Shown one piece after another: positions 32,281 to 46,061 of a DNA stretch of 64,000 nucleotides; position 1 is the stretch's first letter, and every line of letters starts with the position of its first letter. Both the position numbers and the translations under genes were made by a program. Origin of the DNA: Thermoplasmata archaeon (GTDB lineage: Archaea; Thermoplasmatota; E2; JACPAO01; JAHFTW01); contig JAXDQS010000003.1 of assembly GCA_034667725.1 (NCBI GenBank), positions 288,001 to 352,000 of the forward strand. The letters run 5' to 3'. The notes below the pieces were generated by a model that was not told the origin of the DNA, made no database searches, and saw only the letters and a list, made by a program, of their open reading frames with translations.

Positions 32281-33474
32281 TTAATCCCGCCCGGCAAAGG
32301 CTAGGCTTGGGGCGCAGGCCGGTCCCAGGACGCTGGTGCCGGGCACGCCGTGCAGCGCCGACGCCGTGCCGGCCACCCCCGGCGCGCCCGGCACGCCGGC
32401 CGGCGCCCCGGCCCCGCCGGGCCCGCCGTCGCCGCCGAGGGCCGCGGCCTCGGCTCGGCCTTGGCCGCCGGGCCGGCCGCACAGGGCGTTGCCGCCGTCG
32501 CCGGCCTTGGCGTTGGCGGTGCCGCCGTTGCCGCCGAGGCCGCCGTCGCCGCCCTTGCAGGCGCCGAACCAATGGTCGCCGCCGGCGCCGCCCGCCCCGC
32601 CCCGGCCGCCTGCCGCCCCGGCGCGGGCGTCGCCGCCGCGGCCGCCGGCGCTGAAGCCGGCGCCCCCTGCGCCTCCGGTGGCGGTGGCGTCGCCGCCGTT
32701 GCCGCCGTGCCCGCCGTTGCCGCCGGCGGTGCAGGTCCACCAGCCGCCGGCGCCGTCGCGGCCGGCCTCGCCGGCCTCGCCGCCGACCTCGGCGCAGGCG
32801 TCGCCGCCGTCGCCGCCGCGCCCGAGCGCCTGGGCGTCGCCGGGCTCGCCGTCGGGCTGGCCGCAGGCGGCCTCGGTCCCCGTGGCGTCAGCGAGGGTGA
32901 GGTCGGGCGCCAGGGTCCAGCCGCCCGCGAGGGCCGGGTCGAAGGCGCCGCCGGGCCCGCCCGCGCCTCCGGTCGCGCGGGGGCCGGTGGCGTCGCCGCC
33001 GTCGCCGCCCCGCCCGAGCGCGAGGGTGGCGCCGATCCACGCCTCGCCGGCGTGGACCGCGAGCGAGCCGCCGCGGCCGCCGGCGCCGCCTTGGCCTGCG
33101 GCGTCGCCGCCGGCGCCGCCGCTGCCGGTGACCAGGAGGGCGCCCACCTCGGCCCGGACCTGGTGGGCCGCGAGGACGATGCCGCCGCCGTCGGCGCCGG
33201 CTTCGCCGGGCGCGCCGCGGCGGCCGTCCGCGGCCTGCAGCAGGGCGCCGGCGCCGAGGGTGATGGCGTCGGCTTGCAGGACGAGGTCGCCGGGGGTGAG
33301 CTTCAGGAGGCTGCCTTCGACCTGGATGGTGGCGGCGACGACGGGGCCGTCCACGACGACGATGGCGCCGGCGGGGACGACGAACGCGGCGGCGGGGCCG
33401 TCGCCTTCGGCGGCGGGCAGGGCGGGGACCAGCAGCACCAGGGCTGCGAGGGCTTGGATGGCAGGGTGGGCCAT
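32281..33474 (-). CDS. secreted glycine-rich (GGxGGxGG, PGRS-like) protein
   Basis: Signal MAHPAIQALAALVLLVPALPAAEG. Repeated GGAGG/GGDGG/GGNGG blocks interleaved with short beta strands and several Cys. Confidence 0.75.
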   Translation of the reverse strand: MAHPAIQALAALVLLVPALPAAEGDGPAAAFVVPAGAIVVVDGPVVAATIQVEGSLLKLTPGDLVLQADAITLGAGALLQAADGRRGAPGEAGADGGGIVLAAHQVRAEVGALLVTGSGGAGGDAAGQGGAGGRGGSLAVHAGEAWIGATLALGRGGDGGDATGPRATGGAGGPGGAFDPALAGGWTLAPDLTLADATGTEAACGQPDGEPGDAQALGRGGDGGDACAEVGGEAGEAGRDGAGGWWTCTAGGNGGHGGNGGDATATGGAGGAGFSAGGRGGDARAGAAGGRGGAGGAGGDHWFGACKGGDGGLGGNGGTANAKAGDGGNALCGRPGGQGRAEAAALGGDGGPGGAGAPAGVPGAPGVAGTASALHGVPGTSVLGPACAPSLAFAGRD

Positions 33475-33632
33475 GCGCCTTGGAGGGCGGGTCCCAGGAG
33501 AGTCGCAAACGCTCGGGCCCCGCCCCGTCCTATGCAAAAGCCCTTCAACCCGCACCAGGTCGGAATGTCCAGATTCGTACATCGGGTGCTTTCTTGGTCC
33601 GCTGGAACCCTTTCAAGCGCAAGTCCGCCCCC

Positions 33633-34457
33633 GTGGCGTCCGGGTGTCCGTTCGGCTTCGGGTCCGCCGCCGTCACCGCATTGGCGGCGCCCGCCGTCAC
33701 GCCGACCCCCGACTCCCCCGGCCACAGCGCCGCCGGCATGGTCCCCAACACCCCGCGCGGCAACCCTCAGCCGCTGCCCGGCCCGGCCAACGTCTCCGAC
33801 TACGAGAAGTACATGCGCGTGCCGGAGCTGCTGACGCTCCAGAAGCCCGAGGCCGCCCTCGTCCACCACGACGAGCTGATGTTCCAGGTCGTCCACCAGA
33901 GCTTCGAATTGTGGTGCAAGCTGGTGCTGTTCGAGCTGCGCACCGTCGGCAAGCTGCTGGACGAGGACCGCGTCGTCGAGGCCTACCCGCTGATCGAGCG
34001 CTGCACCGACGTCGTCAAGCTCCAGACCGACGCCATCCACGTCCTCGAGCGCATGCACCCGATGGACTTCCACGTCATCCGCGCCGCCCTCGGCCAAGGC
34101 TCCGGCGCCGAGTCCCCCGGCTTCCGCGACATCCAGCTCCACGCCCCCAGGCTCTGGCCCAAGGTCGAGGCGCTGCTGAAGCGCCGCGGCGCCAGCCTGC
34201 TGGAGATCTACGCCGAGCCCCGCAGCCACCCCGACCTCTTGCGGCTGCTGGAGCACCTCACCGACCTGGACATGTTCTTCCACATCTGGCGGCTGAACCA
34301 CCTCGCCATGGTCAAGCGCGTCATCGGCCGCGACGTCAAGTCCCTCAAGGGCTACGCCGTCCACCAGTTGGAAGTCGACGTCCAGATGGTGCTGTGGCCC
34401 GCCCTGTGGAAGGTGCGCAACCAGATCACGGAACGGGCAGGGACGAGCCCGCCTTGA
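33633..34457 (+). CDS. kynA: tryptophan 2,3-dioxygenase
   Basis: Y..Y....ELL.LQ, HDELMFQVVHQSFELW, F..IR..LG.GSG.ESPGFR, WRLNH..MV.RVIG and P.LW.VR motifs. Start uncertain (GTG 33633 giving SGCPF, or ATG 33738). Confidence 0.9.
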   Translation: MASGCPFGFGSAAVTALAAPAVTPTPDSPGHSAAGMVPNTPRGNPQPLPGPANVSDYEKYMRVPELLTLQKPEAALVHHDELMFQVVHQSFELWCKLVLFELRTVGKLLDEDRVVEAYPLIERCTDVVKLQTDAIHVLERMHPMDFHVIRAALGQGSGAESPGFRDIQLHAPRLWPKVEALLKRRGASLLEIYAEPRSHPDLLRLLEHLTDLDMFFHIWRLNHLAMVKRVIGRDVKSLKGYAVHQLEVDVQMVLWPALWKVRNQITERAGTSPP

Positions 34458-34525
34458 CCGGCTTCTTCCGCTTGTCCAGCCACGAAATTGGCAACATCTA
34501 AGTGCGAACCTTCGTGGGACGCCTG

Positions 34526-35539
34526 ATGCTGCGACCCTTGGCCTGGCTTGCGCCCGCCTTGCTCTTGGCGGGGTGTATCGGCGGCAACGGACCCGACGAG
34601 GTGGTCGGGCGCGAGCAGACGTTCGTCGTCCACGTCCTTGGGCCCGACGAACCTGTCCCTGGCGAGGTCCGGCTGAACCTCTTCTGGCAGGTGGGCGACG
34701 CGCTGTATCACATCGGGGGGCACGCCCACGACGGTGAAGCCGTCTTCCACGTTCCCCGGGAGGTCGTCGAGGTCCGTCTGCGGGCGGGCGGCGACGGATG
34801 GGCCAACGACATGGTGGGCGTGAAGGCGGCCGCCGCCGACGGGCAGGCCACCGTGCAAATCTACCCGGCGAAGGTGGAGGGGCGCGTCGAGGGCGTGTGG
34901 CAGACGCCGAACCCGCCAGCGAGCCCTCTGCCAATGCCCTTGGGCGTGGCCTTGACGCCTTGGCGGATGCACGACGTCACGCCCGGGGCCACCGAGGAAA
35001 CGCGCGCGGGGTTCCAGAGCCGACTCGTGCGCGCCAACGCGACGCTCGCTTGGTCGAACGGCCCCGGGGCGCAGGCGGATTTCGGGGCCGGCCTGCTGCG
35101 CCGCGACGCCGCCGACGAGTGCGCGTTCGCAGACAACGAAAACCAGTTCGGCGTGGACGGCGCCGCCCAGGAGTCGTTGGAGGCCAAGAGCACGTTCGGC
35201 TATGATCCGTGCAAGGCCTACCTCTCCTCCGGCGACCCCGACGGCCTGCCCTTGAAGGGCATCCTGGCCGGGCCCATGGCGCGCGGCGCCGTCGTCGGGC
35301 CGGTCGGCTACGCCGTGGACTATCGGCTGGAGTTTGGCGACCCCGTTGTTGGGGACGCTTTCGAGTTTGACGACGGATGCCCCGTGTGCCACTACGACAC
35401 GTTCTACGAGGTCGACCCCGAGACGGGCGACGCCTACCGGATGTCGTGGCCCCTGGGCGCCGCCGCCTCGCCCGCGCTGGCTGCGATGGCCGTCCTTCTG
35501 CTGGCCGCCATTCCCCTGCGCCGCCGCAAGGCGCCCTAG
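34526..35539 (+). CDS. putative lipoprotein with C-terminal TM/basic anchor
   Basis: Lipobox LLLAGC. C-terminal PALAAMAVLLLAAIPLRRRK. Contains CPVCH. Confidence 0.7.
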   Translation: MLRPLAWLAPALLLAGCIGGNGPDEVVGREQTFVVHVLGPDEPVPGEVRLNLFWQVGDALYHIGGHAHDGEAVFHVPREVVEVRLRAGGDGWANDMVGVKAAAADGQATVQIYPAKVEGRVEGVWQTPNPPASPLPMPLGVALTPWRMHDVTPGATEETRAGFQSRLVRANATLAWSNGPGAQADFGAGLLRRDAADECAFADNENQFGVDGAAQESLEAKSTFGYDPCKAYLSSGDPDGLPLKGILAGPMARGAVVGPVGYAVDYRLEFGDPVVGDAFEFDDGCPVCHYDTFYEVDPETGDAYRMSWPLGAAASPALAAMAVLLLAAIPLRRRKAP

Positions 35540-35583
35540 GGCATGCGAAGCCTTCAGATACGCGCCTCCATGGGACGCTGCCC

Positions 35584-36822
35584 TTGCTGTTCGACGTGTT
35601 CTTCAGCATCTCGCAGACGCCGGTCGACGGCCGCACGCCGTCGGAGCCCGAGATGCTCCGGAGCTTCTTCGATCAAGTCGAGGCCGCCGACCGGCTCGGC
35701 TACGGGGTGGCGTGGATCGCGGAGTCGCACCTCTCCACCCACGTCCAGAAGCGCAACCCCAACCCCGTCGTCCCCCACTGGCAGGGCGAGGTGGGCCTCA
35801 ACGCGGACATCCTGCAGATGGCGCACGCCGTGTTCGCGCGCACCCGGCGCATCGAGGTCGGCAGCGCGGTGCTGAACCTGCTGTGCAACGGCGGCCCCGT
35901 CGCGCACGCCGAGCGCATCGCCACCTGGGCCAGCCTGCACGGCCTCGACCCCAGCGAACGCCGCCGGCTCCACGTCGGCTTCAGCGCCGGCCGCTTCGAC
36001 TACCAGAACCGCGCCTACGGCGTCGTCCCCCGCACGCCGCTGGAGAAGGCGATGCCGTTCGGCCTGTGGAAGGGCAAGGTGTTCGAGGAGGCCGCCGAAG
36101 TGTTCGCCCGCGTCCTGCTGGGCGGCGTCGTGGCCGGCGCCGACGTCGCGGAGCGCACGGTCGCGCGCGCCGACTGCCGCACCGACGCCGACTGGGACCG
36201 CATCGCCGCCGCCGCGAGCGCCGAAGGCCGGCTCGACGGCGACCGCGTGCGGCTGCCGAAGTGGTTCACCTTCGAGCCGCTCCAGGTGATTCCGAAGGAG
36301 TGGCGGCGCGGCCTGGTGCAGCTCGTCGTCGGCAGCCACGACCCCGTCGTGCACGCCCTCGTCAACCGGTTCCTGCCGGCGCACATCGCCAACCTGAGCA
36401 TCACGCCGCCCGCCGTCATCGAGGCGACCCACGACCGGATGCGGCGCGAGTTCCATCCGGACGGCGGCCCGTGGAAGCGCTCCTACATGCCGCGCACCGT
36501 CATGGTGTTCCTCAACGAGGAGGCCGGCCTCACGCCGGCGGCGCGGACCGAGGCGGCCAAGGCCGAGGCGAAGAAGGCGCTCACCGCCTACTGGAACGCG
36601 CTGGAGGGCACGCTCGACCCCAAGAAGGTGAACGAGGCGGCGGACAACGCTGTCATCGGCAACGCCGCGGAGGTCGCGTCCCAACTGGCGGCGCGCTACC
36701 ACCCGGAGGACCGCCTCATGCTCTGGTTCGACTTCTTCAACCACGACTCGGCGCGCGTGATCCGGAACATGGAGGCGTTCATGCAGAAGGTCGCGCCGAG
36801 GCTGCAGGAGGTCGCCGCATGA
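35584..36822 (+). CDS. luciferase-like (LLM class) flavin-dependent monooxygenase
   Basis: AD.LGY..AWIAESH, ARTRRIEVGSAV.NL, P..HAE.IA, RL.VGFSAG and C-terminal 'V.R.ME.F..KVAP.L' typical of the LLM TIM barrel. Confidence 0.88.
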   Translation: MLFDVFFSISQTPVDGRTPSEPEMLRSFFDQVEAADRLGYGVAWIAESHLSTHVQKRNPNPVVPHWQGEVGLNADILQMAHAVFARTRRIEVGSAVLNLLCNGGPVAHAERIATWASLHGLDPSERRRLHVGFSAGRFDYQNRAYGVVPRTPLEKAMPFGLWKGKVFEEAAEVFARVLLGGVVAGADVAERTVARADCRTDADWDRIAAAASAEGRLDGDRVRLPKWFTFEPLQVIPKEWRRGLVQLVVGSHDPVVHALVNRFLPAHIANLSITPPAVIEATHDRMRREFHPDGGPWKRSYMPRTVMVFLNEEAGLTPAARTEAAKAEAKKALTAYWNALEGTLDPKKVNEAADNAVIGNAAEVASQLAARYHPEDRLMLWFDFFNHDSARVIRNMEAFMQKVAPRLQEVAA

Positions 36823-37949
36823 AGCATCACCTGGAGTCCGGCCCCGGCTCCGAGATGTACCCCACCTCGCCGCTCGGGGAGCAGGCCAAAGGCATCCCGA
36901 CCGGCCGCGACGTCGAGTGGGAGCCGCTGGTGGACTACCGCCGCCACGGCATCAGCGAGACCACCATCCACGGCGCCGTCGCGTGGGCCAGCGGCAAGAA
37001 GATCATCCACTCCTTCGGCGGCAACGTGCTGTGCTACGGCCGCTCGATGATGAAGCCGTTCGCGATGAAGGTGTTCGCCGAGGAGCTCGCGGGCCTGTCG
37101 TGGGAGCAGAAGGCGATCGCGTGCAGCAGCCACAACGGCGACGTCGAGCACGTGGCGGCCGCCCAGAGCATCCTGCAACCGACCGAGTGGGGCCTGATGC
37201 AGGCGCCGCTCGACGTGCCCCTCGTGCAGTTCGGCCGCCAGGTGCGCCGCCCCCGCCGCTGGTACCACACCTGCTCCGGCGAGCACGCCGCCATCCTGCG
37301 GGGCTGCAAGGCGAAGGGCTGGCCGCGCATCGGCTACCTGCTGCCGCAGCATCCCTGGTTCTCGGCCTACCTGGGCCAGATGCAGCGCTTCCTCGGCAAC
37401 GACTGGCAGCCGCTGCGGGTCGCCCGCGACGGCTGCGGCCTGCCCACCGCCAGCAACACGGTCGCCGAGCTTGCCCTGCTGTACGCGAGCCTGGCCCAGC
37501 GCAAGGACGAGGACTGGATCTGGGAGGCGATGGTGCGCAACCCGGACCTGGTGGGCGGCTTCAACCGGCTCGACTCGACCATCCTGAAGGCGTGCGGCGG
37601 CAAGGTCCTGGCCAAGGAGGGCGCCGACGGCCTGCTGGGCCTCGCCATCGAGCACCCGGACTACCCGGACGGCCTCGGCGTCGTCATCAAGATCGCCCAC
37701 GGCTGGAACCCGCGGGCCACCTGGTACGTCGCGCGGGCCATCCTCGGCGTCCTCGGCTTCGAGCTCAGGAACCCCTACAAGCTGCACCGCCAGAAGGCGT
37801 TCCTGGTCCCCGGCATCGTGCCCCCGAAATACGCCAAGGCGCTGGAGGAGATCCCCACGTGGGACACTTGGGACCCCAACGACGACCGCTGGTACTACGA
37901 CTGGGAGAAGTGGAGCGAGGAGTGGCCGGCGCCGGGGTGGTCGCCGTGA
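36819..37949 (+). CDS. class 3 (Rhizobium etli AnsA-type, Asparaginase_II) asparaginase homologue with altered active site
   Basis: RSMMKP, SSHNG..EH, TCSGEH (canonical NCSGKH), DGCGLP and AKEGADG motifs. ATGA overlap with the LLM gene. Confidence 0.82.
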   Translation: MKHHLESGPGSEMYPTSPLGEQAKGIPTGRDVEWEPLVDYRRHGISETTIHGAVAWASGKKIIHSFGGNVLCYGRSMMKPFAMKVFAEELAGLSWEQKAIACSSHNGDVEHVAAAQSILQPTEWGLMQAPLDVPLVQFGRQVRRPRRWYHTCSGEHAAILRGCKAKGWPRIGYLLPQHPWFSAYLGQMQRFLGNDWQPLRVARDGCGLPTASNTVAELALLYASLAQRKDEDWIWEAMVRNPDLVGGFNRLDSTILKACGGKVLAKEGADGLLGLAIEHPDYPDGLGVVIKIAHGWNPRATWYVARAILGVLGFELRNPYKLHRQKAFLVPGIVPPKYAKALEEIPTWDTWDPNDDRWYYDWEKWSEEWPAPGWSP

Positions 37950-38317
37950 AGGAGCCCCGCGCCGCCGCGCTGGCGCTCGCCGTGGCCGCCGTGCTGGCGT
38001 TCTGGGTCCCCCTGCTGCTTGCCGTCGACGGCCGGTCCTGGGCCCTCTGGCTCACGTCGTTCACGCACGTCCCGGCCTGGATCGCCTTGGCCTTGGCCTG
38101 GCCCGCCGACCGCGTCGTCGTCCTGGGGCAATGGCGCAGCATCGCGCTCCTGCTCGCCCTTGCCGCCATCGCCGGCCACGCCTGGTTCTCGCTGCTGGTG
38201 TCCCTCAACAGCGGCCTCCCCTTGGCAGCGATTCTGGCCCTTTTGGTGCCCGCGATCGTGCTGGCGGCCCGCTGGCATCTCGCCTCGCCCCAGGCGGAAA
38301 CCCCCATGAACCCCTAG
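37946..38317 (+). CDS. small 4-TM membrane protein
   Basis: GTGA overlap with the upstream stop; four hydrophobic segments. Confidence 0.6.
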   Translation: MKEPRAAALALAVAAVLAFWVPLLLAVDGRSWALWLTSFTHVPAWIALALAWPADRVVVLGQWRSIALLLALAAIAGHAWFSLLVSLNSGLPLAAILALLVPAIVLAARWHLASPQAETPMNP

Positions 38318-38334
38318 GCCTCGTGGCCTCCTTG

Positions 38335-39894
38335 GTGACCGACGGCTTCGGCTGGCTGGAGAAGGACCGCGCGGTCCATCAGCGCGACCTCGGGCGGGCC
38401 TACGGGCACTTGCGCCGCGAGGGCGAACGGGAGCGCGAGGCCGAGGCCGCCGCGTGCATGGTGCGCAAGACGCCAAACTGGATCGGCGGCAAGCCCGCGT
38501 TCTCGCAGGGCGGCTTCATCAAGGACCTCGACCCGGCCACGGGTGCGATCATCGCGACCATCCCGCGCAGCCAGAAGGACGACGTGGACGCCGCCGTCGC
38601 CGCCGCCACGGCCGCGTTTCCCGCGTGGGCTGCCACCCCGCTCGCGGAACGCTGCCGCATCCTCGACCGCATCGCGGACATCCTGGAGGCCGACCTCGAC
38701 ACCATCGCGCGCCTGGAGTCGCTGGACACGGGGAAGCCCATCACGCTGGCCCGGCGCATGGACGCCGACCGCTCGGTGCGCAACTTCCGCTTCTTCGCCC
38801 AGTTCGCGCGCGACTGGCGCGACGCCGACCACCCGATGGAAGGGCACGGCAACCGCACCCACCGCAAGCCGCTCGGCGTCGTCGCCCTCGTCACGCCGTG
38901 GAACCTGCCGCTCTACCTGCTGTCCTGGAAAGTGGCCCCCGCGCTCGCGATGGGCAACACCATCGTCGCCAAGCCGAGCGAACTGACCCCGCTCACCGCC
39001 GACCACCTCGCCCGCGTCGCGAAGGAGGCAGGCCTCCCCGACGGCGTCCTCAACATCGTCCACGGCTACGGCCCCGAGGCCGGGCAGGCCCTCGTCGAGC
39101 ATCCCGATGTCAAGGCCGTGAGCTTCACGGGCGGCACCGCCACCGGCCGCAAGGTCGCAGCCAGCGCCGCCGCGACCCTCAAGAAAGTCAGCCTGGAGCT
39201 CGGCGGCAAGAACCCGACCCTCGTGTTCGCCGACTGCGACCTCGACGCCACCGTCGAAGGGGTCGTCCGCAGCGCCTTCACCAACGCCGGCCAGATCTGC
39301 CTGTGCGGCAGCCGCGTCCTCGTCGAGCAGTCGATCGAGCCCGCGTTCCGCGCCCGCCTGGTCGAGCGGGTGCGGGCCCTGCGCGTCGGCGACCCCATGG
39401 ACCCCGCCACCGACGTCGGCGCCCTCATCTCGCAGGAGCACCGTGCCAAGGTCGAGGGCTACCTCGCCCTCGCCCGCGACGAGGGCGGCCAGGTCCTGGT
39501 CGGCGGCAAGCGCCCCGACGACCCCCGGCTCGCCAAGGGCGCCTTCCTGGAGCCGACCGTGATCGCGGGACTGCCCCAGTCGTCGCGCTGCGTGCAGGAG
39601 GAAATCTTCGGCCCCGTCGTCACCCTGCAGCCGTTCGCGACCCAGGCCGAGGCCGTCGCGCTGGCCAACGACGTGCCGTACGGGCTCGCCGCCACCGTCT
39701 GGACCCAGGACGCCGCCAAGGCCGACCGCGTCGCCGAGGCCCTGGACTCCGGGATGGTATGGGTCAACTGCTGGCTGGTGCGCGACCTCCGGGTCCCGTT
39801 CGGCGGCATGAAGCAGAGCGGCGTCGGCCGCGAGGGCGGGCACTGGTCGCTGGAGTTCTTCAGCGAGGCCCGCAACATCTGCGTCAAGGCCTAA
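38335..39894 (+). CDS. 2-aminomuconate/2-hydroxymuconate semialdehyde dehydrogenase (ALDH8A1/AmnC-like)
   Basis: TPWNLPLYL, KPSELTP, FTGGT.TG, LELGGKNP, GQICLCGSR and NCWLVRDLRVPFGGMKQSG motifs. Start is GTG 38335 (with N-terminal extension) or ATG 38458. Confidence 0.88.
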   Translation: MTDGFGWLEKDRAVHQRDLGRAYGHLRREGEREREAEAAACMVRKTPNWIGGKPAFSQGGFIKDLDPATGAIIATIPRSQKDDVDAAVAAATAAFPAWAATPLAERCRILDRIADILEADLDTIARLESLDTGKPITLARRMDADRSVRNFRFFAQFARDWRDADHPMEGHGNRTHRKPLGVVALVTPWNLPLYLLSWKVAPALAMGNTIVAKPSELTPLTADHLARVAKEAGLPDGVLNIVHGYGPEAGQALVEHPDVKAVSFTGGTATGRKVAASAAATLKKVSLELGGKNPTLVFADCDLDATVEGVVRSAFTNAGQICLCGSRVLVEQSIEPAFRARLVERVRALRVGDPMDPATDVGALISQEHRAKVEGYLALARDEGGQVLVGGKRPDDPRLAKGAFLEPTVIAGLPQSSRCVQEEIFGPVVTLQPFATQAEAVALANDVPYGLAATVWTQDAAKADRVAEALDSGMVWVNCWLVRDLRVPFGGMKQSGVGREGGHWSLEFFSEARNICVKA

Positions 39895-39918
39895 AGAGCG
39901 GACCCGGTCGGCGCCGCC

Positions 39919-40335
39919 GTGGAGTCCCCGTACCTGCTGGTCAGCCCCGCCCTCGCCGGCTACGTCGCCGGCTTCGTCCTCATGGCGCCCGCCCTCCAGG
40001 CCGCAAGCCGGGCCAGCCCCGTCGGCAAGGGCCGCGCCTTCATCTTCGCCATCCTGCCGCTGGCGGGCCTGCTGTTCGCGTTCGTCGCGGCGTTCCTGGC
40101 CTCCGGCAACGGCGCCGACATCCCCACGCCGCTCATGCTGCTGGGCGCCGCGGCCGCCGTGCAGTGCATCCTGCAAGGGTTCCTGGTGCGCGCCCGCCTT
40201 GGCACGCTCGACCCCGCCGACCCGCAGGACCCGGCCTTCGGGAAGCTCCTTGCCATGGTTGTCGCTTGCGAGGTGCTGACCATCCTCGCGTTCATCAACG
40301 CCTTCCTGGCGATGGGCCGGGCGACGGCGGGCTAG
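39919..40335 (+). CDS. orphan V/A-type ATPase proteolipid (subunit K/c)-like 4-TM protein
   Basis: GRAFIFAILPLAGLLFAFVAAFL and ILQG...FGKLLAMVVACEVLTILAFINAFL parallel NtpK helices 2 and 4, including the membrane-embedded Glu. Confidence 0.55.
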   Translation: MESPYLLVSPALAGYVAGFVLMAPALQAASRASPVGKGRAFIFAILPLAGLLFAFVAAFLASGNGADIPTPLMLLGAAAAVQCILQGFLVRARLGTLDPADPQDPAFGKLLAMVVACEVLTILAFINAFLAMGRATAG

Positions 40336-40373
40336 CACCACCTTCAAGGACCGGGAGCCCTGCTGGCGGCGCC

Positions 40374-41297
40374 ATGCCTGGCAAGAGTGGCCGCATCGTC
40401 GCCGGCTGCCTCACGCCCCACCCGCCTCACCTCGTCTACGCCGACAACCCGCCCCAGAACGAGCCGCGCGCCGAATGCGGCTGGGAGACGGTGCGCTGGG
40501 GCTACGAGCGGCTGCGCCACAGCCTGGGCCGCCGCGACTACGACGTCCTCATCGTTCACTCGCCGCACTGGCGCACCCAGGTCGGCCACCACTTCCTCGG
40601 CGTCCCCCACTTCTCGAACCTGAGCGTGGACCCGATCTTCCCCAACCTGTTCCGGTTCAAGTGCGACATCGACGTCGACGTCGAACTGGCCGAAGCCATC
40701 GAGCAGCGCGCCCGCAAGAAGGGCCTTGTCACCAAGATGATGCGCAACCCCGCCTACCGCGTCGACTACGGCACCATCGCGGCGTGCCACCTCGTCAACC
40801 CGGCGTGGGACAAGCCCATCGTCGGCATCAGCTCCAACGGCGCCTACAAGTATTACTCGAACGACGTGGGGCAGGCCCAGCAGCGCGCCCTCGGCGAAGC
40901 AACCAAGGAGGCCATCGAGGCCACCGGCCGCAAGGCGCTGCTGCTCGCAAGCAACTCGATCAGCCACCGCCACTTCACCCGCGAAGGCCCGCTCCCCGAG
41001 GACATGAGCCAGGAGCGCATCTACCACCACGGCCAGTACCTGTGGGACATGCACGCCATCCGCCTCATGCGCGAAGGCCGCGCCGAGCAGCTGTTCGACG
41101 AGATGCCCGACCTGATCGACGACGCCACCTCGGAGGCCGACGCCGGCTGCCTCAGTTGGCTCTTGTCCGCCTTGGGCTACCCGAAGTATCCCGCCGAGCT
41201 GCATGGCTACGGCACGGTGATCGGCACCGGCAACGCCGTCGTCGAATGGGACCCGGACCCCAAGACAAGACAAGTGACGCCACGGGGAAGGACCTAG
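40374..41297 (+). CDS. amnB: 2-aminophenol 1,6-dioxygenase beta (catalytic) subunit, LigB-type extradiol dioxygenase
   Basis: PHPPHLVY..NPPQNEPR....WE..RW.YER, HSPHW, SVDPIFPNLFR, RVDYGTI, S.SHRHF and YGTVIGTGN match the AmnB/CnbCb pattern. Confidence 0.9.
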   Translation: MPGKSGRIVAGCLTPHPPHLVYADNPPQNEPRAECGWETVRWGYERLRHSLGRRDYDVLIVHSPHWRTQVGHHFLGVPHFSNLSVDPIFPNLFRFKCDIDVDVELAEAIEQRARKKGLVTKMMRNPAYRVDYGTIAACHLVNPAWDKPIVGISSNGAYKYYSNDVGQAQQRALGEATKEAIEATGRKALLLASNSISHRHFTREGPLPEDMSQERIYHHGQYLWDMHAIRLMREGRAEQLFDEMPDLIDDATSEADAGCLSWLLSALGYPKYPAELHGYGTVIGTGNAVVEWDPDPKTRQVTPRGRT

Positions 41298-41342
41298 CAA
41301 AAAACGCTATACCGAGCCGCCGATGCCGACGTGGTCCCGCCC

Positions 41343-41792
41343 ATGCGCTCCACCCTGCTCGCCTGCGCCTGCCTTCTGACCGCGATCTTGGCTGCCGCCC
41401 CCGTGGGCGCCTCGCCGCCCCCCGGCTACGACCCCAAGAGCTGCCGCTTCGCCATCGAGACGCACGGCATCGACGCCCACTGCACCGTCAAGGGCATGAC
41501 CGTCGGCGGCTACGTGGACTGCAACACCAACTGCGACTTCACCGGCCACGAATGGTCGTGCTTCTTCAGCACCGGCGGCCCCGTGGACTACTTCCAGTGC
41601 CCGGTGGCGGACCTGCTGCCGGACGCCTACTGCGTCCTCACCCCCACCAGCGCTGGCCTGTTCGGCGCCTGCACGATCGCCGGCAGCACCCTCCCCATCC
41701 TGGTCGGGTGCGAGAGCTGCGTCCCGCTCTGGGTCGGCCCCACCTGCACCCTCGGCCTCAAGGACGGCACGCCGGTCGCCGTGTGCGCCTGA
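41343..41792 (+). CDS. small secreted Cys-rich protein
   Basis: Signal MRSTLLACACLLTAILAAAPVGA; about 12 Cys in a mature part of about 125 aa. Confidence 0.75.
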   Translation: MRSTLLACACLLTAILAAAPVGASPPPGYDPKSCRFAIETHGIDAHCTVKGMTVGGYVDCNTNCDFTGHEWSCFFSTGGPVDYFQCPVADLLPDAYCVLTPTSAGLFGACTIAGSTLPILVGCESCVPLWVGPTCTLGLKDGTPVAVCA

Positions 41793-41844
41793 GGACGCCA
41801 GAGGGGCCGCAACCGTCAAGGCGGCGGCCCTTCTGGCCGGGCCG

Positions 41845-43281
41845 ATGAGCCGCAAGGCCGCCCCAAAGGCCACGGGCACAAGGTCCGCGCCCAGCCCCAA
41901 CGCCGCCTCCGGCCTCGTCGCCGCCTTCCTCGTCCCCGGCCTCCCGCATCCGTACCTCATCCCGGACGCGAACCCGGGCTACCGCCGCGTCCGCGACGCC
42001 TACGACGCCGTGCGCACCGAAGTGCAGCGCCTCAAGCCCGACCTGCTGCTGCTCTACTCGACCCAGTGGCTCTCCGTCGTCGGCCACCAAGTCCAAGCGC
42101 GTGCGGAAGCGGTCTGGGACCACGTCGACCCCGAGTGGCACGAGCTGGGGCACATCCCCTACAAGCTCCGGTTCGACCCTGCCTTCGGAGCCCAGTACGT
42201 CGAGAAGGGCCGCGCCCGCGGCCTCGAGATGCGCACCGTGGACTACCACGGCTTCCCCATCGACACCGGCACCGTCATCGCGCTCAAGCTGCTGGACCCC
42301 GACGGCCGCATCCCCGCCAGCGTGGTGTCGTGCAACATGTACGCCGACCGCGCCGAGACCATCGTGCTCGGCAAGGCCGCCCGTGACGCCGCCCAAGCCA
42401 CCGGCAAGCGCGTCGTCGCCGTCGCTGTCACCGCCCTCAGCAGCCGCCTGCACACCGGCATCGTGCCGTGGAAGGACGACCGCATCCACAGCCTCAAGGA
42501 CGACGAGTGGAACCGCAAGTACCTCGAGTTCCTCGGCAAGGGCCGCCTCGAGGACGCCAGCCAGCTCGCCCGCGAGTTCAGCAGCCAGGCCAACGGCGAC
42601 CAGAAGCTGAAGGCCGTCTGGTGGCTGTCCGCCGTCATGGGGGCCAGCAACGCCTACGACGGCCGCGTCTTCGCCTACGAGCCGCTCTACGGCACCGGCG
42701 CCGCCCTCGTCGGCCTCACCCCGACCCAGAAGGCCACGGCGGACAAGGAGTTCGACGAGGACGACGCCGAGGTCTATCTCGGCGACCGCAACGTCCTCTC
42801 CAGCGGCTCCGACGCGGCGACCCTCACGATGGAGGAGCAGGACAAGTGGGCCGGGACCGCGACCGTCGTGCACGCCAAGGCCGCGCCCAAGCCCGTCGGC
42901 GCGTACGCGCACGCCCGCCTAGTTGGCGACCTCCTGTTCCTCGCCGGCATCGGGCCCCGCACGCCCGGCACGGACGAGATTCCCGGCGGCCCCATCCGCG
43001 ACGCCAACGGCAAGCCGCGCGACTACGACGTCCGCGCCCAGACCCGGCAATGCATCGAGAACGTCAAGGCCGTGCTCAAGGAGTCCGGCGCCAGCCTGGA
43101 GGACGTCTTCGACGTGCAGGTGTTCCTGGTCGACATGGACCGCGACTTCGCGGCGTTCAACGAGGTCTACGGCGAGCACTTCGGGAGCATCCAGGCCACG
43201 CGCACGACGGTCGAGGTCGAGGCGCTGCCGACGCCGATCGCGGTCGAGCTGAAGGTCATCGCGCAGGTGCGCAAGGCATGA
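41845..43281 (+). CDS. 2-aminophenol 1,6-dioxygenase alpha subunit fused to RidA-family 2-aminomuconate deaminase
   Basis: N-part AFLVPGLPHP, YSTQW, HVDPEW, GFPIDTGT and Y.P.YGTGAA (AmnA-like). Acidic linker. C-part PKPVGAY.HA..VGDLLFLAG and FN.VY...F....TRTTVEV..LPTPIAVELKVIA (RidA). Confidence 0.85.
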   Translation: MSRKAAPKATGTRSAPSPNAASGLVAAFLVPGLPHPYLIPDANPGYRRVRDAYDAVRTEVQRLKPDLLLLYSTQWLSVVGHQVQARAEAVWDHVDPEWHELGHIPYKLRFDPAFGAQYVEKGRARGLEMRTVDYHGFPIDTGTVIALKLLDPDGRIPASVVSCNMYADRAETIVLGKAARDAAQATGKRVVAVAVTALSSRLHTGIVPWKDDRIHSLKDDEWNRKYLEFLGKGRLEDASQLAREFSSQANGDQKLKAVWWLSAVMGASNAYDGRVFAYEPLYGTGAALVGLTPTQKATADKEFDEDDAEVYLGDRNVLSSGSDAATLTMEEQDKWAGTATVVHAKAAPKPVGAYAHARLVGDLLFLAGIGPRTPGTDEIPGGPIRDANGKPRDYDVRAQTRQCIENVKAVLKESGASLEDVFDVQVFLVDMDRDFAAFNEVYGEHFGSIQATRTTVEVEALPTPIAVELKVIAQVRKA

Positions 43282-44072
43282 GCGCCCCCATCCGCCTCCA
43301 GTTGTCCGACGACGAGGCCGCCGTCCTGTGGGACCTCATCATGGAGTCCAGCGAAGAGGACCAGCGCATCCTGCGCCGCGTCGCCGGCGAGCTGGAGCCG
43401 CACGTGCTGGAGGGCGACGACGAACCCGAGGCGGCGCCGGCCCAAGACCCCGAAGGAATCCTCGACATCAGCCCCCTCGTCTCGCCCCGCATCGCCGTCT
43501 GGCCGGGCGACGTCCCGTACACCAGCCGCAAGTCCGCCACCCTTGGTCCCGCCGGCGGCATCGACCTCGGCGACATGCACACCACCTACCACGTCGGCGC
43601 CCACACCGACGCGCCGCGGCACTACAAGCTCGGCGCCGCCGACGCCGCCTCGGTCCCGCTCGAGCCCTACGTCGGCCCGTGCCAAGTGGTGCAGGTGCGC
43701 GCCCGCCGCGGCAAGCGCTTCGGCCTCGTGGACCTGGCGCAGCAGGTGACGGCGCCGCGGGTGCTGTTCAAGACCGGCACCTTCCCCGACCCGCACGCCT
43801 GGAACACCGACTTCGCTGCCCCCGAGCCGGAGCTGCTGGACGCCTTGGCCGCCCGCGGCGTCGTCCTCGTGGGCTTCGACACGCCGAGCACCGACCTGTT
43901 CGACTCCAAGGACCTGGCCGCGCATCAGCGGCTCGCCAAGCACGGCATGATGAACCTCGAAGGGCTCGTGCTGGACCACGTCGCGCCCGGCGACTACACC
44001 TTGGTCGCGCTGCCCCTGAAGCTCCAGGACGCCGACGCAAGCCCGGTGCGGGCCGTCCTGCTGCCGCCGTGA
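43278..44072 (+). CDS. kynB: kynurenine formamidase (cyclase family)
   Basis: DIS......VWPGD, HVGAHTDAPRH, G.DTPS.D, LEGL.L and LPLKL..ADASPVRAVL motifs. Extra acidic N-terminal segment of about 60 aa. ATGA overlap. Confidence 0.88.
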   Translation: MSAPIRLQLSDDEAAVLWDLIMESSEEDQRILRRVAGELEPHVLEGDDEPEAAPAQDPEGILDISPLVSPRIAVWPGDVPYTSRKSATLGPAGGIDLGDMHTTYHVGAHTDAPRHYKLGAADAASVPLEPYVGPCQVVQVRARRGKRFGLVDLAQQVTAPRVLFKTGTFPDPHAWNTDFAAPEPELLDALAARGVVLVGFDTPSTDLFDSKDLAAHQRLAKHGMMNLEGLVLDHVAPGDYTLVALPLKLQDADASPVRAVLLPP

Positions 44073-44121
44073 AGCCCGCGCGTTGGACAACTTCAAGCCC
44101 TGCGCACCCACCCAGGTCCCG

Positions 44122-44703
44122 ATGGCCGCCCCCGTCCCGCGCCGCCCCTTGCCGCCCGCGCGCGCCGCCTACCGCTTCCCGACCCAGCCCGACCCGGCCA
44201 TGAAGACCGTGTGGGCGATCCGCGCCGCCGGCTTCGGGCTGTTCTACGCCATCCCGGTGACCTTCATGCTGGGTCCCTTGAGCCTGTTCCTGCGCGGCGA
44301 CGAGAAGCCCACGACGCTGCTCGACGTGGTCGGCCCCCTGATCGGCGTCTACGTCGCCGCCTGGCTCGTCTTCACCGTGATCGGCGTCGTGTACGCCCAA
44401 CTGGCCTGGGGCCGCTACCGCATCGAGGTGCGCGACGAGGAGGTCGTCGTCCACAAGGGCGTCCTGTTCCGCACCACCAGCCGCGTCCCGCTCCGGAAAG
44501 TGCAGGACATCCACGTCCGCCAAGGCCCGCTGCTGCGCGCGTTCGGCCTGGCCAGCCTCAAGCTCGACACCGCCGGCGGCTACGGCCCCGCCAACTCCGG
44601 CCGCGGCATGGCCGCCGAAGGCCAGATGCCCGGCATCCGCGACGCCCACGCGGCGGCCGAGGCCCTCATGGTGCGCGTCAAGCAGATCCGCAGCGACCTG
44701 TAG
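44122..44703 (+). CDS. membrane-flanked bacterial PH (bPH_2/DUF304) domain protein
   Basis: Two TMs, then Y.I....V....GVLFR....VP..KVQ.I...QGPL.R.FGL..L.L.TAG. Confidence 0.85.
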   Translation: MAAPVPRRPLPPARAAYRFPTQPDPAMKTVWAIRAAGFGLFYAIPVTFMLGPLSLFLRGDEKPTTLLDVVGPLIGVYVAAWLVFTVIGVVYAQLAWGRYRIEVRDEEVVVHKGVLFRTTSRVPLRKVQDIHVRQGPLLRAFGLASLKLDTAGGYGPANSGRGMAAEGQMPGIRDAHAAAEALMVRVKQIRSDL

Positions 44704-44707
44704 CGCC

Positions 44708-45268
44708 ATGATCGGGATTCCGCCGCGCCGCCTCGAGACGGTCCTGGTCGTCTCGGCCTTCGCCGGCACGCTCGTGGCCGCCATCCTCGGCTTGGCCCAC
44801 GCCAGCAGCGCCCTCCTGCTGTTCTGGCTGGAGACCGCCATCGTGCTCGCCGTCGGCGCCGTCCGGGGCGCGCTGCGCCGCGCCCCCAAGCCCGCCGCGC
44901 TGGCGCTGTTCTTCGGCTTCTTCCTGTTCGTCCACCTCCAGTTCCTCATCGCCCTGGCGGCAGCCGACCAAGGCGACTCCTTCCTGGTGTTCCGGCCCGG
45001 CTTCGCGCCCGGCCTGTTCGTGCCGCTGCTGCTGCCCGCCCTCGGCCTTGCCGTCGGCCACGCCCTCGCCGCCCCGCCCAAGGACGCGCTGCCCGCCGCC
45101 GCCATCGCCCGCGTCCTGGTGCTGCACGTCGCCCTCGTCCTCGGCGGCTTCGCCTCCTTCGTGCTCGGCACCGCCGTCCCCGTGCTGTTCGTCCTCACCG
45201 CCTTGCGCCTTGCCGCCGAGTTCGTGCCCGTGCGCTGGCCGTCGCGGCTTTCACCCCGCGCGGCTTGA
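44708..45268 (+). CDS. DUF6498-like membrane protein
   Basis: LLLFWLET, FF..F.FVH..F and R.LVLH.AL.LGG motifs. Confidence 0.6.
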   Translation: MIGIPPRRLETVLVVSAFAGTLVAAILGLAHASSALLLFWLETAIVLAVGAVRGALRRAPKPAALALFFGFFLFVHLQFLIALAAADQGDSFLVFRPGFAPGLFVPLLLPALGLAVGHALAAPPKDALPAAAIARVLVLHVALVLGGFASFVLGTAVPVLFVLTALRLAAEFVPVRWPSRLSPRAA

Positions 45269-45275
45269 GCCGGGC

Positions 45276-46061
45276 GTGGACCTCTCCCTGCGCGGCCGCC
45301 ACGCCCTCGTGTGCGGCGCCTCCCAAGGCATCGGCCAGGCCGCCGCCGTCGCGCTCGCCGAGCTGGGCGCCACCGTCACGGTGCTGGCGCGCAACCCCGC
45401 CAAGCTCGCCTCGCTGCGCCCCATCCTGATGCAGGCCGGCGCCACCGAGACCCACATGATCGTGGCGGACCTCGACGACCGCGCCGGGCTGCGCGAGGCG
45501 GTCGCGGCCCATCTGGAAAAGGCGGGGCCGGTCCACATCCTGGTCAACAACACCGGCGGCCCCCACTCCGGCGCCCTGCTGGAGACCAAGGAGGCGGAGT
45601 TCCTCCACGCCTACGGCCGCCACCTCCTGGCCAGCCACCTCCTGGTCCAGCTCGTCGTGCCCGGCATGAAGGAAGCCGGCTACGGCCGCATCGTCAACGT
45701 CCTCTCCACCAGCGTCCGCGAGCCCATCCCCGGCCTCGGCGTCTCGAACACCATCCGCGCCACCATGGCCTCGTGGGCCAAGACCCTCAGCCGCGAGCTG
45801 CCGCCCGGCGTCACCATCAACTCGGTGCTGCCCGGCTACACCGACACCGAACGGCTGACCGAACTGTCCACCACGATGGCGGCCCGGCAAGGGAAGTCGC
45901 CCAAGGACGTGGCGAAGGGATGGGTGGACGTGACACCCGAAGGCCGCTTGGGTCGGCCTGAGGAAATCGGGAGCGTCATCGCGTTCCTGTGCAGCCCGGC
46001 GGCGTCGTTCGTGCGCGGCGTGGTGCTGCCGGTGGATGGCGGGCGGCTGAACTCGATCTAG
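45276..46061 (+). CDS. short-chain dehydrogenase/reductase
   Basis: CGASQGIG, VNNTGGP, GRIVN..S, atypical SNTIR in place of YxxxK, LPGYTDT and VDGG. Confidence 0.92.
   Translation: MDLSLRGRHALVCGASQGIGQAAAVALAELGATVTVLARNPAKLASLRPILMQAGATETHMIVADLDDRAGLREAVAAHLEKAGPVHILVNNTGGPHSGALLETKEAEFLHAYGRHLLASHLLVQLVVPGMKEAGYGRIVNVLSTSVREPIPGLGVSNTIRATMASWAKTLSRELPPGVTINSVLPGYTDTERLTELSTTMAARQGKSPKDVAKGWVDVTPEGRLGRPEEIGSVIAFLCSPAASFVRGVVLPVDGGRLNSI

Follow-up and report, generated by a model that had tools for sequence, protein, structure and literature searches.

How does a cell get from tryptophan to 2-aminophenol without kynureninase (KynU)? The question is raised by a gene cluster in a 64,000-nucleotide stretch of DNA (hereafter the window) from contig C3 of a soil Thermoplasmata (Thermoplasmatota) metagenome-assembled genome (MAG; 2.3 Mb, 90% complete). 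The cluster encodes the enzymes that open tryptophan, those that consume 2-aminophenol, and two proteins in between: a luciferase-like monooxygenase (LLM) and a homologue of class-3 asparaginases. The original prediction held that these two close the gap by inserting oxygen into kynurenine and hydrolysing the product. On our analysis, the cluster very probably encodes a kynureninase-independent pathway of tryptophan catabolism, and the net work of the LLM and the hydrolase is probably to convert a kynurenine-type intermediate to aspartate and 2-aminophenol. Our overall reading, to which we give a probability of roughly 0.6, is that the cluster represents a widespread branch of tryptophan catabolism, found in archaea and several bacterial phyla and possibly also in a jakobid. 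In this branch a flavin enzyme would insert oxygen into (N-formyl)kynurenine by Dakin-type chemistry, and an enzyme with the asparaginase fold would recover aspartate.

The cluster and the company it keeps

The eight enzyme genes, all on the + strand as originally described, are:

33738..34457, + strand: tryptophan 2,3-dioxygenase (TDO)-family protein, KynA (PF03301, E 5e-33; TIGR03036, 127 bits against a cut-off of 391; alignment to 2NOX; clade conservation)
35584..36822, + strand: LLM, luciferase-like group C flavin monooxygenase of an isolated clade, 412 residues (PF00296); putative oxygen inserter
36819..37949, + strand: class-3 asparaginase homologue (PF06089, E 3.5e-51; matches ReAIV/ReAV by sequence and fold); proposed beta-aspartyl aryl ester or anilide hydrolase
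38458..39894, + strand: AmnC-type 2-aminomuconate 6-semialdehyde dehydrogenase (best PDB matches 4U3W and 7BZV)
40374..41297, + strand: AmnB, 2-aminophenol 1,6-dioxygenase beta subunit (3VSG_B, E 3e-115; 8IHG_A; 7TXY_B)
41845..43281, + strand: AmnA alpha subunit fused to a Rid-family, AmnD-type 2-aminomuconate deaminase (LigB and PF01042; 6IZH)
43278..44072, + strand: KynB arylformamidase with a short acidic N-terminal extension (TIGR03035, 202 bits, slightly below the cut-off of 223; PF04199)
45276..46061, + strand: atypical short-chain dehydrogenase/reductase (SDR) with SNxxR replacing YxxxK; proposed NAD(P)H reductase of 2-oxohex-3-enedioate or 2-aminomuconate

The LLM and asparaginase genes share the predicted ATGA overlap (36819-36822), and a second one joins AmnA::Rid to KynB (43278-43281). 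A start of the TDO gene at 33633 had been proposed; the ATG at 33738 is more likely, although the start is uncertain, the reading frame being open from 33480.

The canonical route is missing from more than the cluster. Kynureninase gave no match in the window or the rest of the genome, tblastn included, and none in 151 genomes of the window's class; the search controls were positive. Kynurenine 3-monooxygenase (KMO) was not found in the genome: the KMO query came back blank, and the FAD_binding_3 matches that we checked are of the geranylgeranyl-reductase type. The genome's sole Amidohydro_2 protein matches no structure of ACMSD. The genome search for 3-hydroxyanthranilate dioxygenase (HAO) was also blank, but its control likewise gave no match anywhere. 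Kynureninase, KMO and ACMSD, first noted as missing from the cluster, were thus not found anywhere in the 90%-complete genome. A complete KynU/KMO/HAO route just outside the window had been named as evidence against the proposal; no canonical route was found in the genome.

The LLM is far from unique to the window. A genome scan confirmed at least 509 relatives, the closest among the matches listed being from Thermoplasmatota MAGs, and the LLM is present in 20 of the 22 genomes of the window's family, with none found in the remaining class sample. In a quick tree the window falls, with support, into a Thermoplasmatota group that is separate from the marine archaeal copies and lies amid mixed bacterial phyla; the taxon labels in this tree come from the submitters, and a number of them are plainly mistaken. 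Of the genomes sampled, 14% in Myxococcota and 16% in Bdellovibrionota carry the clade.

Its neighbours recur from locus to locus. Around the best 80 of the at least 509 loci we counted the asparaginase homologue 64 times, the dehydrogenase 60, the SDR 54, AmnB and AmnA 40 each, the Rid protein 35, KynB 31 and TDO 26; no additional enzyme or transporter recurs there. Among the LLM loci of at least 15 kb (70 of 180), 65 have the asparaginase homologue, 51 AmnB, 46 TDO or KynB, and none KynU. The linkage of the LLM/asparaginase pair to TDO, KynB and AmnAB is therefore not peculiar to the window.

The predicted anti-correlation with kynureninase is also borne out. Our 201 Myxococcota genomes include 29 with the LLM, 90 with TDO and 38 with KynU. 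The 29 LLM carriers have TDO (27/29), the asparaginase clade (27/29) and AmnB (28/29); none has KynU, where about 11 would be expected among TDO-positive genomes. In 151 Bdellovibrionota (LLM 24, KynU 34) the overlap is again 0, against 5.4 expected, and a further 50 LLM genomes, drawn from several phyla, yielded no KynU. The Planctomycetota sample (LLM 8, KynU 14) is too sparse for exclusion to show; it has an overlap of 1, against 0.7 expected. The LLM thus almost never stands alongside kynureninase. Co-occurrence with TDO combined with exclusion of KynU is the profile of a kynureninase alternative, and it repeats across phyla.

The Myxococcota sample also holds 26 TDO-positive genomes with neither KynU nor LLM. 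In one of them (G359) the cluster is broken at a contig end; the remainder may use other routes.

Could an ordinary asparaginase gene and a stray monooxygenase gene have landed beside a xenobiotic amn operon by chance? Unrelated open reading frames (ORFs) are interspersed among the enzyme genes, as such an accident might leave them. Conservation across phyla, gene fusions (below) and whole-genome co-occurrence contradict the idea, and three LLM carriers hold a second, distant class-3 asparaginase besides. We regard it as extremely improbable. What does need amending is the description of the locus as one cluster: the genes are co-oriented and conserved, but they do not form a single tight operon. 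Six small ORFs for membrane or secreted proteins lie between them, and since related loci do not conserve these, we take them to be lineage-specific insertions in a conserved cluster.

Among other ORFs in and beside the cluster, one at 34526-35539 encodes a secreted-looking protein that belongs to no Pfam family; a paralogue with 25% identity lies elsewhere on the same contig (C3:277922-278857). A small cysteine-rich, secreted-looking protein without a Pfam match is encoded between amnB and amnA (41343-41792), and a bPH_2 membrane protein and a DUF6498 protein between kynB and the SDR gene (44200-45268). Directly upstream of the TDO gene is a long Gly/Ala-rich, low-complexity ORF with several cysteines (32281-33582). 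Promoter and terminator scans gave matches at chance level only. By dataset listing the window DNA occurs in a soil metagenome and in no RNA dataset.

The hydrolase and the monooxygenase

The hydrolase has the fold of ReAV, and the residues it has kept point to its substrate. These are Arg75, the Ser76-Lys79 and Ser104-Lys266 pairs, Cys152, His156, Asp204 and Cys206. Arg75, Ser76, Lys79, Ser104, His156 and Asp204 are invariant in 60 hydrolase sequences, Lys266 is present in 59 and both cysteines in 55. The Cys/Lys/Cys zinc site of class-3 enzymes (NCSGKH) is altered: the equivalent of Lys138 is Glu155, a glutamate in 55 of 60 main-clade sequences, and hydrolases of a distant subclade keep lysine there. 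In ReAV a Lys138Ala change is tolerated with reduced activity (PMC11024299). L-Asparagine is anchored in ReAV by the metal site and Arg47 (PMC12292245). Because the residues that provide this anchor are kept, aspartate is the likely product. To judge from these residues, the substrate would be beta-aspartyl-X as a free amino acid. In kynurenine, X is an aryl group, and oxygen insertion turns this group into a good leaving group.

Alternatively, the hydrolase might itself be a kynureninase that works without pyridoxal phosphate (PLP), yielding anthranilate and alanine, with the LLM making 2-aminophenol from anthranilate by decarboxylative hydroxylation. This would be the most direct explanation of the mutual exclusion with KynU. 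However, we know of no electron sink in the hydrolase for an alanine carbanion, and an LLM of this kind would be pointless in genomes where it is kept and no AmnAB was found. Moreover, asparaginase geometry, together with the conserved residues, puts the leaving group on the aryl side and leads to an aspartyl-enzyme (PMC12292245). We consider this alternative very unlikely.

The fold of the LLM is consistent with oxygen insertion. Its structure model (pLDDT 91.7) is closest to LuxA, the luciferase alpha subunit, and RslO1 (Z 29.0), followed by 8K74, 2I7G and 3,6-diketocamphane monooxygenase (Z 26.4-26.8) and MsnO8 (24.6); RutA (23.4) and HcbA1 (19.4) score lower. On this model the LLM groups with luciferase and type II Baeyer–Villiger enzymes, which may indicate how it works rather than where it belongs. 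The family is compact, with 112 representatives at E 1e-30, mostly fragments; three of six distant members inspected lie beside an asparaginase and three have no pathway neighbour. CofD was not found in five genomes, which makes F420 the less likely cofactor.

One eukaryotic relative hints at what the enzyme needs. In protein ANDGO_01838 of the jakobid Andalucia godoyi (EukProt P0124; 1501 residues), a member of this LLM clade (45%) is fused with three further parts: a hydrolase domain of GATase-like type, ApbE and a flavin-reductase-like domain, the last a weak match (E 0.2). The fusion is a hint that the LLM requires reduced flavin and a hydrolase; a transfer to the jakobid, with a different hydrolase, is possible.

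On this basis we propose the following sequence. By family assignment, TDO would form N-formylkynurenine and KynB would strip the formyl group. The LLM, supplied with reduced flavin mononucleotide (FMNH2) by an unlinked flavin reductase, would attack kynurenine or N-formylkynurenine at the aryl ketone with a flavin peroxide; Baeyer–Villiger or Dakin-type insertion is the mechanism we favour. As the substrate of the insertion, kynurenine is a tentative choice and N-formylkynurenine, though doubtful, nearly as likely. The electron-rich aryl group would migrate to give an aryl beta-aspartyl ester, which might optionally pass by an O-to-N shift to the anilide. The hydrolase would then grip the alpha-amino-acid end through its metal and Arg75, form a beta-aspartyl-Ser76 intermediate and release L-aspartate and 2-aminophenol. 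In a variant, N-formyl 2-aminophenol would be released and KynB would deformylate it after the hydrolase.

Several observations weigh against this reading. The fold matches of the LLM are only 14-20% identical and several are tied, so that they do not fix the reaction. In luciferase, His44 is the base that produces the nucleophilic peroxide (PMC10696468). When aligned by motif, the 81 LLM sequences have serine (67/81) or alanine (14/81) at this position, although the histidine that follows is invariant; judged by sequence, the loss speaks against a simple luciferase-type mechanism. No cluster examined contains a flavin reductase gene, and the two flavin reductases of the window's genome are both unlinked to the cluster. 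In the window's TDO the GTGG(S/T) substrate loop is replaced by a different motif, invariant in 10 archaeal homologues; His188 (proximal), His53 (distal) and Arg115, which we take to be the heme ligand, the distal histidine and the substrate arginine, are kept in alignment with 2NOX. One complete-looking genome (G196) has the LLM and AmnAB with only a weak asparaginase match, and no clear replacement was found near the relevant genes of this genome or of G377. An offshoot of the LLM, described below, is coupled to KMO in a KynU-positive genome, for which our proposal has no explanation. Finally, related genomes are not independent, so P values overstate the associations, and gene absences rest on MAGs.

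The atypical TDO loop and the missing His44 equivalent also suggest that the true substrate could be another tryptophan-related compound, such as a modified form of tryptophan, an anilide derived from indole or a different aryl ketone, or that the LLM is no oxygenase. KynB-fold proteins, too, include other amidases. However, bacterial carriers of the cluster use ordinary TDOs of other clades, one of them with the canonical loop; the exclusion of KynU points to competition for kynurenine; and no further conserved enzyme or transporter recurs that might serve another substrate. We therefore judge a different substrate unlikely.

Order of steps and the lower pathway

Gene fusions tie the hydrolase to both ends of the pathway. 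In the distant Bdellovibrionota subclade (LLM 31-35% and asparaginase 28-35% identical), the LLM is followed by an asparaginase::KynB fusion; TDO adjoins in 9 of 10 loci, and the tenth ends at a contig edge. In two loci of this subclade these genes are preceded by amnB, amnA, the deaminase, the dehydrogenase, dmpE and dmpH; a third has the last four, and none has the SDR. An AmnA::asparaginase fusion occurs in three proteins, one of which adjoins a TDO-SDR-LLM-ALDH::Rid-KynB operon (ALDH, aldehyde dehydrogenase). Through its fusions to KynB and AmnA the hydrolase is physically tied to both modules, upper and lower. Because fusions reflect gene order as well, they do not prove that the fused steps are adjacent.

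The arrangements vary. A rearranged cluster (L111:10001-19989) carries AmnA::asparaginase and ALDH::Rid fusions on converging operons, the fusion partners varying within the family. In three Bdellovibrionota loci (L125, L237 and L241) a minimal cassette of LLM, asparaginase::KynB and TDO sits immediately behind guaB-guaA; relatives have amn genes between guaA and the LLM.

Four genomes speak to the order of steps. TDO, LLM and asparaginase are present in G628, G576, G635 and G604, and no LigB-family gene was found in any of them by the search that found AmnAB in G583; G628 is almost a single contig of 2.17 Mb. Provided that these absences are real, the hydrolase does not rely on ring opening for its substrate, and the LLM is required even where the ring is not cleaved. 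The order is therefore probably LLM first and hydrolase second, before ring cleavage, with aspartate as the gain. This is the order originally predicted, and these genomes favour it.

They also bear on a different scheme, in which the LLM does the work of KMO and produces 3-hydroxykynurenine, whose ring AmnAB opens directly, and the asparaginase homologue removes the aspartyl group from the ring-opened product by C-C hydrolysis, replacing KynU and ACMSD together. The gene set and end products would be identical, 3-hydroxykynurenine is an o-aminophenol, the AmnA::asparaginase fusions are compatible with either order, and the main cluster has no KMO. The four genomes that retain the LLM and asparaginase with no LigB gene found speak against the scheme, however. 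AmnB shares about 57% identity with an ordinary aminophenol dioxygenase, and the model aromatic hydroxylases of one review are group A and D enzymes (PMC10696468). We find the scheme improbable.

The LLM offshoot bears on the same question. The KynU-positive genome G519 carries a canonical KynU-KMO-TDO-KynB cluster; at another place it couples a divergent LLM to a second KMO homologue (L122:4954-7571), and it lacks AmnB. The pair recurs in five metagenome loci (L155-L159), and the coupling is stable across several lineages at 56-98% identity. An LLM that did the work of KMO would be redundant beside a true KMO homologue; the pairing argues that the family stays tied to kynurenine and that the LLM is no duplicate of KMO. 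Two of the loci, L122 and L157, encode a class I/II aminotransferase and a cNMP-binding protein upstream of the pair.

This offshoot also counts against a third scheme, in which the LLM hydroxylates C3 of kynurenine and the hydrolase breaks the aryl-carbonyl bond directly, as in a retro-Friedel–Crafts reaction, to give aspartate and 2-aminophenol. Such a scheme is compatible with the order LLM then hydrolase and with an intact aspartyl anchor. However, hydroxylation at C3 would place the OH meta to the acyl group, where it does nothing to ease the departure of the ring, and the Ser-Lys apparatus of the hydrolase is of the amidase type. We think it very improbable.

Below 2-aminophenol, the proposed pathway runs through enzymes of established families. 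Both parts of an aminophenol dioxygenase are present, a beta subunit with iron ligands and a non-catalytic alpha subunit. AmnB is about 57% identical to 3VSG_B, counted from the alignment (E 3e-115), and its His16, His65, Tyr132, His198 and Glu254 are invariant in the clade; as in the CnbC structure, we take these to form the iron site. The best PDB matches of the AmnC-type protein are 2-aminomuconate semialdehyde dehydrogenases, and 2-aminomuconate deaminase 6IZH is the second-best match of the Rid domain (E 1.8e-24). By family assignment, AmnAB, AmnC and the Rid domain would take 2-aminophenol to 2-oxohex-3-enedioate. AmnAB also occurs in a different context: in L119 (G248) it lies beside phenol hydroxylase and an intradiol dioxygenase, with no LLM, asparaginase clade or TDO.

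The decarboxylase/hydratase/aldolase set of amn operons (DmpH, DmpE, aldolase) was not found in the window's genome. The SDR occurs in 81 loci and DmpE/H in 6, never together, and minimal cassettes lack the SDR; judging by this alternation and absence, it probably acts below ring cleavage. It lacks the catalytic tyrosine and has an NADP-type arginine. The odds are about even, in our view, that it would reduce 2-oxohex-3-enedioate to 2-oxoadipate. The genome encodes a 2-oxoacid:ferredoxin oxidoreductase beta subunit and an E1 alpha; as for glutaryl-CoA dehydrogenase, every acyl-CoA dehydrogenase of the genome scored below the cut-off.

Comparison with known systems

We found no published description of this route, in literature mostly outside subscription journals; the two enzyme activities proposed for it are probably new. 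If the proposal is right, one of the best-studied amino-acid catabolic pathways would have an extra route, which includes a PLP-free kynureninase analogue. It would account for TDO-positive genomes without kynureninase (27/53 in the Myxococcota sample), and many class-3 'asparaginases' would be mis-annotated. AmnAB, otherwise known mainly from pollutant degraders, would gain a natural source of 2-aminophenol.

The canonical kynurenine pathway (TDO, KynB, KMO, KynU, HAO, ACMSD, AMSDH and deaminase) shares with the cluster its entry, TDO and formamidase, and its exit, 2-aminomuconate semialdehyde dehydrogenase and a Rid-family deaminase. In between, KMO, KynU and ACMSD were not found here and seem to be replaced by the LLM, the asparaginase homologue and AmnAB. 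The predicted by-product is aspartate rather than alanine and CO2, and no quinolinate precursor would arise.

The 2-aminophenol meta-cleavage systems (amn, cnb and nbz operons, and the ARO microcompartment, PMC10470539) have homologues of AmnB, AmnA, AmnC and AmnD in common with the cluster, and DmpE/H-type genes in common with its distant subclade. The cluster differs in adding an upper pathway from tryptophan and in fusing AmnA to the deaminase; its main clade has the SDR in place of decarboxylase, hydratase and aldolase. According to the ARO paper, it is not known from what compound 2-aminophenol arises naturally in the ARO system (PMC10470539).

The SDR has its own precedent in 6JH7, its second-best PDB match, an ene-reductase that likewise lacks YxxxK and that we take to be AerF. 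A paper's title describes AerF as an NADPH-dependent double-bond reductase. The proposed substrate of the SDR differs in being a ring-cleavage product.

Luciferase and the type II Baeyer–Villiger enzymes (3,6-diketocamphane monooxygenase, MsnO8 and RslO1) fall into the same TIM-barrel subgroup as the LLM (Z 24.6-29.0; root-mean-square deviation 3.1-3.6 over about 300-320 aligned residues). The LLM is set apart by its 14-20% identity to them, serine or alanine in place of His44, about 60 extra residues and a clade that has no characterised member.

With the Rhizobium etli class-3 L-asparaginases ReAIV and ReAV the hydrolase shares the fold, both Ser-Lys tandems, the equivalents of Arg47 and Asp187, and the two metal cysteines. 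It is 21-27% identical to them in fold alignments, and has glutamate for Lys138 in the main clade and aspartate for Cys249. A conserved loop (129-148) and C-terminal tail are its own, and it is associated with the LLM and sometimes fused to KynB or AmnA.

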